From sequence record OZ335964.1: a stretch of 64,000 bases of DNA; one strand, given 5' to 3'. The position numbers and the translations under genes were made by a program. The notes beneath the pieces are model-generated. The model searched no databases. It saw only the letters and a list, made by a program, of their open reading frames with translations, and had not been told where the DNA came from. Of the stretch, positions 1 through 2,817 are shown in pieces (within the stretch, counting starts at the first letter, position 1; every line of letters starts with the position of its first letter). Source of the stretch: a phage.

Positions 1-2817
1 ATGAGCGTGATTGAAGGGATTAACGCAATGGCGACGGATGAACACCCGCTACATTTAGCTCATCCGTCTACACTAGAAACTAAAATTGATTCAAATGGTA
101 TTGAATGGATTTTATCAAAGCATGATGATAAATGGTATCCTAAAAAGTTTTCTGACTATCTGAAATTAAACAGACCGCAGAAAATAAGGATGCAAAGCAC
201 TGATCCAACAAATTATAAGTTCTTTAAAGATAGTGACAATATTCGCACGCGGTATATGCGATTAAAGAACTTGCGAAGGGCGAATATTAAAACTCAGTAT
301 ACCCCTGAAATGATCGCAGAGTGGAAACGATGCCGTAAAGATATTGTGTATTTTGCCGAAACCTATTGCGCAATTACACATATCGACTACGGTACAATCA
401 AAGTACAATTGCGTGATTATCAGAAAGATATGCTTAAGATCATGCACGAAAACCGCATGAGCGCACATAAACTCAGTCGTCAGCTAGGTAAAGCACTTGA
501 TGTTAATACGCCTATTCCTACCAGCGATGGGTTTAAACGTATGGGGGATATTAAAGAAGGTGATCAGATCTATGCGCCTAATGGTCGTTTAGTTAATGTT
601 GTATATGCAACGGAATACCAGTATGATCGCAAGTGCTACGAAGTTGTTTTAGATACTGGCGCTAAGGTTGTTGCTGATGCCGATCATATCTGGACTGTAT
701 ACGAAAAAGTTGGCAACAAACATGTCAAGCGTGATGTTACAACTCAGGAAATGGTCGATAAGGGTATTACTACCAAAGGTCAATCCAGATTTAAAATCGC
801 TAAGACTAAACCGATTAAGGGAGAAACTAAAGTTCTTCCTGTTGATCCGTATACTTTAGGTTATTGGTTAGGTGATGGTCACACTGATGCAGCACGAATC
901 ACCCACCATAAGGACGATAGCGGCATTCTGACGCATTTAAACGAACAAGGCTATCATACATATACTTTTGCAGATAAACGCAATAGCAACGTTCTCACAA
1001 CGTCTGCGCATGGGTTATGGGAAGGACTTAAAACCGCTGGCGTTGCTGGCAATAGGCATATCCCTATGGAATACCAATTCGCTGATATTGATCAGCGCAC
1101 TTCATTACTGCAAGGTATCATGGATTCTGACGGATGCATCAATAAAAATGGTTATGCTGAAATTACATTAAAACTGAAACCGCTTATCGATGACATTTAT
1201 TCGCTGTTGTGCGGATTGGGCTTTAAGCCGAAAATGAAAGAAAAAGTGGTAAAAGGTACTGTATATTACAGAATTTCATTTAATGCATATGCAGATAAGG
1301 GTGTGTGTCCGGTTCGAATGGAGCGTAAGAAAGCAAATCTTATTAATTCTTGCGAAGATACAAGAACAGATTTTCTTTTTATTCGTGAAATTAATCCGGT
1401 TGAATCTCGTCCGGTAAAATGTATTCAGGTTGACAGTGAGGATAAACTATATCTGTGCGGTCGTGAATTTATTCCGACTCATAATACTACCGCTGTAGCA
1501 ATATTCCTTGCTCACTACGTTTGCTTTAATAAAGACAAAGCTGTAGGTATACTGGCACACAAAGGATCTATGTCAGTTGAAGTTCTAGAACGTACAAAAC
1601 AGGCGATAGAATTGTTACCTGATTTTCTACAACCTGGTATCGTTGAATGGAACAAGAAATCTATTGTGTTAGAAAACGGGTCTAGTATCGGCGCTTATGC
1701 ATCGTCACCAGATGCGGTGCGCGGAAACTCCTTTAGTTTCATATACATAGACGAAGCAGCCTTTATTAGTGCGTGGCAGGACGCATGGTTAGCTATTCAA
1801 CCAGTTATCTCATCTGGTCGTGAATCTAAGCTGATCATGACCACGACTCCTAACGGGCTTAATCACTTTTATGATATCTGGCAATCGGCTATTGATGGTA
1901 AAAGTGGTTATGTACCTTATGAGGCGGTTTGGCATTCTGTTAAAGAACGTCTTTACAATAAAGCTGATATATTCGATGATGGTTATGAGTGGTCATCTCA
2001 GGCGATCGCCGGATCAAGTCTTGAGCAATTCTTGCAGGAACATAACGCTGAATTTTTCGGTAGTTCCGGTACTCTGATCAGGGCAACCACACTATCAAGA
2101 TTATCCTTTATTGACGTTGTTAATGATAACGGGTTTTATCAGTTTGAGAAACCGAAAGAAGGTAGAAAATATGTTGCTACACTAGATTGTTCAGAAGGTC
2201 GAGGACAAGACTATCACGCAATGCAAATCATTGATATTACTGAATTTCCTTATAAACAGGTTGCGGTATATCACAATAACACGGCATCACATTTGATATT
2301 ACCAGATATCGTCTTTAAATATCTCATGATGTATAATGAATGTCCGGTGTATATTGAGCTAAATAGTACGGGTGTATCTATTGCTAAATCTCTTGCAATG
2401 GATCTGGAATATGACAATATTATATGTGATTCCTATGTAGATCTAGGCATGAAACAGACTAAACGGTCTAAGGCAATTGGATGTTCTGCCCTAAAAGACT
2501 TAATAGAAAAAGACAAACTGATCATTAATCATAAAGGGACTATTCAAGAGTTGCGCACATTCTCTGAAAAAGGGTTAAGCTGGGCAGCAGAAGAAGGTTT
2601 TCACGATGATTTGGTCATGAGTCTGGTAATATTTGGTTGGTTGTCAACACAAGAAAAATTCGCTGAATATGCAGGGAAAGACGAAATGCGCATTGCATCC
2701 GAAATATTCCGAAAGGAATTAGATGAAATGGGCGATGAATATGCTCCGGTGGTAATATATGACGGTGCGAATGGCATCGAAGAATATCAACCACGCGAAG
2801 GTCTTTCAATGGTATAA
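1..2817 (+). CDS. 17: Large terminase subunit (T4 gp17-like), interrupted in frame by an intein
   Basis: 938-aa ORF; N- and C-terminal parts align colinearly with T4 gp17 ([36 protein letters not shown] / [64 protein letters not shown]); 331 extra residues sit inside the Walker A motif. Confidence 0.93.
493..1485 (+). mobile_element. Intein with LAGLIDADG-type homing endonuclease domain, inserted between GK and TT of the terminase P-loop
   Basis: Insert starts [10 protein letters not shown] and ends FIPTHN, followed by Thr +1; two LAGLIDADG-like motifs ([25 protein letters not shown]); extein junction restores the T4-like SRQLGKTT sequence. Confidence 0.75.

Follow-up and report, generated by a model that had tools for sequence, protein, structure and literature searches.

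Class 3 inteins are defined by a non-nucleophilic residue 1 that co-varies with Trp at position B:12, Cys at F:4 and Thr at G:5 and by Thr or Ser at position +1; they reside mostly in the P-loops of ATPases, including those of phage terminases, where they have been known since 2010, and both a thioester-linked branched intermediate at block F and the obligate character of the block F Cys have been demonstrated for MP-Be DnaB (Tori et al. 2010, PMC2807308). A structure is available for one such intein from the P-loop of a DnaB helicase (Msm DnaBi1, 6BS8), in which splicing is initiated by Cys118 of block F (Kelley et al. 2018, PMC6195587); this residue works together with Trp67, Thr137, Asp62, His65, His138 and Asn139, and the C118A substitution abolishes splicing (PMC6195587). 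The position between Lys and Thr of the P-loop has been described as a "classic" intein site, with the mycobacteriophage P-loop sites found in the Terminase_1 family and the sole reported Terminase_6-like site lying in the C-motif (Kelley et al. 2016). A recent preprint counted 287 actinobacteriophage inteins of class 3, most of them residing in terminases and Cas4 exonucleases (bioRxiv 10.1101/2025.01.02.630785), and according to a 2024 paper no inteins were reported in coliphages (PMC11162368). Here we analyze a 64,000-nt stretch of phage DNA from the sequence record OZ335964.1 (hereafter the window, at its full length), which opens with an interrupted gene for a T4-type large terminase (terL), and we conclude that nt 493-1485 very probably constitute a bifunctional class 3 intein, with both a splicing and a homing endonuclease domain, located in the Walker A P-loop of this Krischvirus TerL protein.

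Nucleotides 1..2817 of the window (plus strand) form a single open reading frame (ORF) of 938 aa, which encodes the T4-type large terminase (TerL/gp17) and is followed by the tail sheath gene; megablast assigned the source phage to Krischvirus (RB49-like, T4-type coliphages). The Pfam scan of this ORF identified the domains Terminase_6N (aa 496-698), Terminase_6C (aa 727-899) and LAGLIDADG_3 (aa 365-422). The alignment with RB49 gp17 (607 aa) contains only one gap, of exactly 331 residues, from K164 to T496, while the exteins are 96% identical. The insert spans 993 nt, is in frame, and splits the Walker A motif between Lys164 and Thr, with the junctions SRQLGK/ALDVNT...FIPTHN/TTAVAIF (slashes mark the splice sites). 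A preliminary description of the window, made from the sequence alone, had placed an intein inside Walker A of the large terminase, and its coordinates turned out to be exact when compared with RB49 gp17. It had also stated that the ORF is ~330 aa longer than T4 gp17; this size is roughly right, and since T4 gp17 comprises 610 aa the precise excess is 328 aa, the figure for the orthologous RB49 gp17 being 331 aa. No 331-aa excision other than that of A1..N331 restores SRQLGKTTAVAIF, and because no alternative excision regenerates the Walker A sequence, the boundaries of the intein are unambiguous, with Ala as the first residue and Thr directly after the last one.

The phmmer search against all PDB chains reported as top matches the DnaB-1 intein from M. 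chimaera (6rix, 6riy) and DnaBi1 from M. smegmatis (6bs8), with E-values between 2.6e-18 and 3.2e-17. Both halves of the insert align with the DnaB inteins (N-terminal ALxxxTPxPT...ADAxHxW and C-terminal PVxCxxVD...LYLxGxxxxPTHN), PI-SceI covers the middle part, and Cys310 within PVKCIQV is aligned with Cys118 of 6bs8 within VRCVEV. The AlphaFold2 model, built from a 50-sequence alignment, shows a compact HINT plus endonuclease fold (pLDDT 96.8, pTM 0.93). Foldseek searches of the PDB with this model identified PI-SceI, TliVMA and PI-PfuI as full-length matches (E-values 1e-14 to 1e-20; TM 0.65-0.76, with 0.76 for PI-SceI; for PI-SceI and TliVMA the E-values are 1e-17 to 1e-20 and TM 0.70-0.76), the class 3 DnaB mini-inteins 6bs8/6rix as matches with TM 0.82-0.86 (normalised to the target), and LAGLIDADG enzymes of the I-DmoI type as counterparts of the central domain. 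The splicing blocks A, B, F and G and the HINT fold are present according to phmmer, the model and Foldseek, and the intein ends with His330-Asn331, followed by Thr+1. That the insert is an intein, as originally proposed, is borne out by the sequence homology to solved inteins and by the superposition of the model on PI-SceI and the class 3 DnaB mini-inteins.

All the motifs quoted in the preliminary description are present, namely Ala1, ADADHIW (with His65 and Trp67), PVKCIQV (with Cys310), PTHN/T and two LAGLIDADG-like motifs, and their pattern is not due to chance, as indicated by the E-value of 2.6e-18 to a solved class 3 intein and by the invariance of the key residues in the 50-sequence alignment. 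A homologue search of 5.8 billion proteins yielded 125 relatives, 104 of them with a complete intein. In this set the residue preceding the intein is Lys in 102/104 cases, with Gly before the Lys in 100/104; position 1 is occupied by Ala in 90 sequences, Gln in 8, Gly in 3, Cys in 2 and Leu in 1; the block B His (B:10) and the Trp two residues further on (B:12) are each found in 103/104, the block F Cys (F:4) in at least 101/104, and the terminal Thr-His-Asn in 104/104, while position +1 is taken by Ser in 93 sequences and by Thr in 11. In the MAFFT alignment of 50 sequences (A2), 49 of which are homologues, invariance within the intein is limited to columns T10, G13, G31, H65, W67, C310, T329, H330 and N331, and the Trp-Cys-Thr (WCT) triplet is unchanged in 49/49 homologues. 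The window intein exhibits Ala1, Trp67 (B:12), Cys310 (F:4), Thr329 (G:5) and Thr+1, that is, the full set of class 3 hallmarks; the WCT-like pattern noted earlier corresponds to the published definition and is aligned with Trp67, Cys118 and Thr137 of Msm DnaBi1.

Other splicing classes were weighed against the same data. As Cys begins two of the 104 complete family members, one could imagine a conventional class 1 intein with a misplaced start, the true N-terminus being Cys or Ser; however, the empty-site alleles set the boundary to the residue (K/A-L-D), the alignment rejects the shifted start, and position 1 holds no Cys, Ser or Thr, in agreement with the lack of an N-terminal nucleophile reported in the preliminary description, which makes this explanation next to impossible. 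KlbA inteins, which also have Ala at position 1, use Cys+1. By analogy with them, Ala1 could point to a class 2 (KlbA-type) route, in which the +1 residue would attack the N-terminal junction directly and Cys310 would be non-catalytic. However, the KlbA inteins are the Ala1 group without the WCT triplet (Tori et al. 2010, PMC2807308), while the window intein combines Thr+1 with the full and invariant triplet and so does not conform to class 2, and the solved inteins closest to it have been demonstrated to belong to class 3 and to require their block F Cys; we therefore consider the class 2 route very unlikely. The coordinates of the intein, its catalytic residues and the flanking exteins are collected in Table 1.

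Table 1. Features of the intein-containing terL gene (positions in nt of the window)
Feature	Position	Strand	Remarks
N-extein, TerL aa 1-164	1..492	+	ends in SRQLGK, the N-terminal half of Walker A
Complete intein, 331 aa, 37.3 kDa	493..1485	+	class 3 splicing domain and LAGLIDADG homing endonuclease
N-terminal splicing half, intein aa 1-85	493..747	+	blocks A and B
Ala1	493-495	+	N-terminal splicing half
Cys48	634-636	+	N-terminal splicing half
Asp62	676-678	+	N-terminal splicing half
His65	685-687	+	N-terminal splicing half, B:10
Trp67	691-693	+	N-terminal splicing half, B:12
Homing endonuclease domain, ~aa 86-289	748..1359	+	edges approximate, from the secondary structure of the model
LAGLIDADG motif 1	853-882	+	contains LGYWLGDGH; Asp128 at 874-876
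LAGLIDADG motif 2	1105-1137	+	Asp213 at 1129-1131
C-terminal splicing half, aa 290-331	1360..1485	+	blocks F and G
Cys310	1420-1422	+	F:4, predicted initiating nucleophile
Thr329-His330-Asn331	1477-1485	+	G:5-G:7
C-extein of TerL	1486..2817	+	remaining part of the ATPase domain and nuclease domain
Thr+1	1486-1488	+	second Walker A residue (GK/T) and predicted +1 splicing nucleophile
Mosaic C-extein block over Walker B	1534..1833	+	extein nt 541-840

By analogy with the characterized relatives, splicing would most likely proceed by the class 3 route. The terL gene would be translated as a 106.8-kDa precursor with the ATP-binding loop split in two, and this precursor is expected to be inactive because the loop is interrupted. 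Ala1 cannot perform the usual acyl shift; instead, Cys310, placed by Trp67, Asp62, His65 and Thr329, is predicted to attack the Lys164-Ala1 bond and to form a thioester branch on the intein, after which Thr+1 would receive the N-extein. Asn331 would then cyclise with the assistance of His330 and free the 37.3-kDa intein, and an O-to-N shift would rejoin SRQLGK with TTAVAIF to yield a functional TerL of 607 aa and 69.4 kDa (all masses are computed values). In a mixed infection, the LAGLIDADG endonuclease embedded in the intein, which has two motifs, would be expected to cleave terL genes without the intein, with the RB49-type empty site as the putative target (CAGCTAGGGAAA and ACTACCGCTGTAGCA on the two sides of the insertion point), and repair of the break would copy the intein in (homing). 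Mechanistically, there is no departure from the known class 3 inteins. The earlier argument that the terminase needs splicing to work is a sound inference, as the P-loop is physically split, and it gains indirect support from ten records of plaque-isolated phages in which the intact precursor gene is the only annotated terL at the locus.

Among the characterized systems, the splicing domain can be compared with the mini-inteins Msm DnaBi1 and M. chimaera DnaB-1 (6BS8, 6RIX/6RIY), which occupy the same kind of P-loop site, between GK and a following Ser or Thr. These class 3 DnaB mini-inteins share with the window intein Ala1, Cys48, the Asp62-x-x-His65 arrangement, Trp67, the block F Cys and the terminal Thr-His-Asn, with identical residue numbering throughout the N-terminal half, but they are bacterial, reside in a helicase, have lost the endonuclease and are followed by Ser+1, whereas the window intein resides in a phage terminase, retains the full LAGLIDADG domain and is followed by Thr+1. 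PI-SceI (yeast VMA1), TliVMA and PI-PfuI resemble it in that a LAGLIDADG endonuclease with two motifs is inserted into their HINT domain, but they belong to class 1, with Cys1 and only ~16% identity, and PI-SceI has an additional DNA-recognition region. The inteins in TerL and in Cas4/RecB exonucleases of actinobacteriophages (Kostya, Omega, Bethlehem) are likewise of class 3 with a LAGLIDADG endonuclease, and those in TerL also have a phage packaging ATPase as a host. Full-length tblastn matches to the actinobacteriophage inteins exhibit 30-38% identity; unlike in these systems, the host protein here is a coliphage T4-type Terminase_6 member, and the intein sequence is at most 38% identical to theirs.

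Our search of 50,697 GenBank phage records found the intein at ≥95% identity in 12 Krischvirus records only, with all other matches at ≤38%; the distant matches comprised the exonuclease of mycobacteriophage Omega, Kostya-type TerL, a Bethlehem locus annotated as a "hypothetical protein" and TerL of the jumbo coliphage UE-S1. A scan of IMG/VR with the intein reported ECD7 itself as the sole close relative. A nearer counterpart is provided by a metagenomic TerL (P0001, with the "Clostridium sp." label of a metagenome-assembled genome), which carries an allelic, 70% identical intein in the same T4-type site (SRQLGK/ALDVDT...PTHN/TTAVAIY); it differs in its exteins, which are 59-74% identical, and in being a partial sequence from a 2-kb contig fragment without phage context. 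That an intein with 70% identity occupies this site in another TerL of the T4 type argues that this intein lineage is older than Krischvirus and site-specific. The metagenomic homologues are mostly found in dCTP deaminases, at the site ...RLEGK/SSLGRLG, which is not a Walker A loop (P0007-P0116). The remaining hosts of homologues are Terminase_1 and GpA-type terminases, PD-(D/E)XK nucleases, PhoH and DnaB, and the insertion is nearly always located after "GK". Judging from these sequences, the whole class 3 clade seems to be tied to the junction of GK with a following Ser or Thr, as would fit a switching of exteins among sites that look alike.

The intein is patchily distributed within Krischvirus. 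With megablast, 73 phage records match the gene, and 12 of them hold the full 2817-nt version at 93-97% identity (kvi, ECD7 (two records), PTE-Eco09, FL15, FL04, MIZ4, MIZ5, AV108, Makalu_002, Makalu_003 and ELT3), whereas about 60, including RB49, JSE and GEC-3S, have a 1824-nt intein-less gene that matches both flanks only. Denmark, Russia and Nepal are among the countries of origin of the carriers, which are plaque isolates whose records annotate one terL at this locus. We compared 11 alleles, i.e. that of the window and those of ten fetched intein-bearing Krischvirus records. All 11 are open, with no stop codon or frameshift, and keep every catalytic residue; the intein alleles fall into three haplotypes with a nucleotide divergence of 4-5%. 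Between haplotypes, the dN/dS ratio of the intein amounts to ~0.13 overall, to 0.10-0.14 in its splicing portion and to 0.12-0.20 in its endonuclease portion, which indicates purifying selection; together with the intact alleles and the plaque-forming carriers, this lends indirect support to the predicted splicing. The endonuclease domain scores 26.8 bits against LAGLIDADG_3 (cutoff 22.5), retains both catalytic residues, Asp128 and Asp213, and comprises two LAGLIDADG subdomains, an alpha-beta-beta-alpha-beta-beta-alpha pair whose structural matches include PI-SceI and I-DmoI.

Outside a mosaic block in the C-extein (see below), the terL exteins of Krischvirus are ~99% identical with or without the intein. 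Within the 492-nt N-extein, the intein-bearing MIZ4 and ELT3 each differ by 1 nt from the intein-less JSE, and the inteins of ELT3 and MIZ4 differ from each other at 42 of 993 nt; since near-identical flanks hold inteins that are 4% diverged, or none, we argue for independent acquisitions. Additionally, the Gly codon at position -2 is GGT in the window and in most intein-bearing alleles, while it is GGG in 6/6 intein-less alleles examined and in ELT3. The presence/absence pattern, the diverged inteins in like flanks and the GGT marker fit repeated homing from a diverse pool of donors.

Several observations weigh against the interpretation of nt 493-1485 as a splicing and homing class 3 intein. 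Scans of Pfam and NCBIfam detected no Hint or intein splicing domain at a useful threshold, with LAGLIDADG_3 as the sole profile to pass, and because the Hint profiles are silent the class was assigned by pairwise, profile and structural homology. As the +1 nucleophile, Thr is in the minority within the family (11/104). Splicing, the role of Cys310 in it and the activity of the endonuclease are features that we infer from homology to enzymes for which they have been demonstrated. As for the population data, the same pattern could stem from ordinary recombination of co-infecting phages, and a seemingly recent sweep of the intein (99-100% identity in the intein versus 92-96% in the exteins) proved to be an artefact, with the divergence concentrated in the mosaic block and in the 3' part of the window's own gene.

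The silent Hint profiles and the reliance on inference for splicing would also be compatible with a decayed, non-splicing relic, either tolerated as an interrupted gene or leaving the terminase functional with the insert in place. Such a relic would, however, separate Lys from Thr in Walker A, and one would have to reconcile it with splicing residues that are intact in 11 alleles, a dN/dS of ~0.13, carriers that form plaques with one annotated terL at the locus, and a model that is compact and confident; we regard it as highly improbable. We assign a larger, though still minor, share of probability to the possibility that class 3 splicing is real but the endonuclease is no longer active, so that the patchiness would reflect vertical descent, loss and general recombination. 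The visibly mosaic structure of Krischvirus terL, which indicates frequent recombination, and the restriction of the intein to 12 of 73 records speak in its favour, as do the endonuclease changes within the main haplotype (3-5 nonsynonymous versus 1 synonymous, which are very small numbers); on the other hand, both LAGLIDADG motifs and their catalytic Asp residues are intact, the endonuclease part exhibits a dN/dS of 0.12-0.20 between haplotypes, near-identical flanks contain 4%-diverged inteins or none, and the synonymous GGT versus GGG difference at codon -2 accompanies most copies of the intein.

The mosaic block of the C-extein occurs as three haplotypes with differences of up to 23%, while outside it the genes are ~99% identical. 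One haplotype is common to the window, kvi, ECD7 and PTE-Eco09; its counterpart in RB49 is IYIDECAFIQNWTDCFL. The block may represent a co-conversion tract. We also considered a change from DEC to DEA near Walker B as a correlate of the P-loop intein, but the linkage is not strict: the intein-less JSE has DEA, and the intein-bearing FL15, MIZ4, AV108, FL04 and ELT3 have DEC.

The closest relative of the window in other regions is the Shigella phage JK32 (MK962753.1), which is devoid of the P-loop intein. Its terL (L001, 1501-4612) consists of two ORFs, broken by a 1288-nt insertion at Walker B (IYIDE/CAF), at a position equivalent to that after nt 1755 of the window, inside the mosaic block. 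The first ORF ends with a short N-terminal intein piece (CVSGLTKVTL...) fused to a TnsA/endonuclease I-like nuclease, and the second starts with a C-terminal intein piece that ends with VESHN/C and matches CatC of the engineered "Cat" consensus split intein (E-value 1e-11). From its sequence, JK32 terL looks like a natural split-intein "fractured gene" in a coliphage terminase, an arrangement that was reportedly described by Dassa et al. in 2009. In the window, nt 2194-2817 (extein nt 1201-1824, the nuclease domain) are ~12% different from all other Krischvirus alleles examined and nearly identical to JK32; because this 3' third resembles JK32 only, the window terL is a recombinant of a kvi/ECD7-like 5' part that includes the intein and a JK32-like 3' part.

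The differences between the window and JK32 in the terL extein are almost confined to the 300-nt mosaic block, where the window is equal to kvi and ECD7, and the kvi/ECD7 haplotype of this block has Ala in place of the Cys that would serve as the +1 nucleophile for a JK32-type Walker B intein. This comparison of sequences suggests that one element may have displaced the other by co-conversion, as in a competition between two mobile elements. In Msm DnaBi1, oxidative stress leads Cys48 to form a reversible disulfide bond with the catalytic Cys of block F, which blocks splicing (PMC6195587). The window intein has Cys48 at the same position, and it is kept in 40/49 family members. One might speculate that the intein is not just a selfish element but acts as a conditional switch of DNA packaging and, in a related scenario, that the P-loop intein and the JK32 Walker B intein compete for terL, but we consider this rather doubtful. 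If the former were true, maturation of a coliphage terminase could depend on the redox or zinc status of the infected cell; if the latter were true, each intein would displace the other via co-conversion of the intervening 270 nt.

Two further regions of the window deserve a mention. Between gp23 (major capsid protein, 9262-10848) and gp24 (16443-17684) there is a 5.2-kb segment (11031-16205) that is absent from RB49 and contains three large ORFs (572, 307 and 621 aa), the third encoding a long coiled-coil, tropomyosin-like protein; megablast found the whole segment in JK32 only (99.1%) and its first 2 kb in a few other Krischvirus phages at ~77%. On the minus strand, positions 21122-23665 encode an 847-aa protein with multiple Ig-like domains in the position of Hoc, which is about twice as long as RB49 Hoc (404 aa) and for the most part has no DNA match in RB49.

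None of the ten fetched intein-bearing GenBank records has the intein annotated as a feature. In PQ306574.1, PP400778.1 and PP358550.1 the intein-containing terL is named "replicative DNA helicase (DnaB)", in one case with the remark "intein-containing"; this misnaming presumably arose because the intein resembles the DnaB inteins while the Hint profiles of Pfam and NCBIfam miss it. Our literature search found no description of a Krischvirus, RB49-like or T4-type gp17 intein in the searchable literature. Nevertheless, the preliminary description implied more novelty than is warranted, as the arrangement is long established in actinobacteriophages: the kind of element is already known, and this is a new member of it, in a host family (Terminase_6, T4-type) and a phage group (coliphages) for which our literature search found no description.

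The case carries a lesson for annotation, in that an intein missed by the Hint profiles presumably caused a terminase to be mislabelled as a DnaB helicase in three records. As to the biology, no viral DNA-packaging motor has been studied better than T4-type gp17, E. coli is the easiest host to handle, and natural intein-plus (ECD7, kvi, MIZ4) and intein-minus (RB49, JSE) partner phages are already available in collections. The Krischvirus terL intein would thus provide a tractable system for class 3 splicing with Thr+1, for conditional splicing of an essential phage enzyme and for homing with co-conversion.

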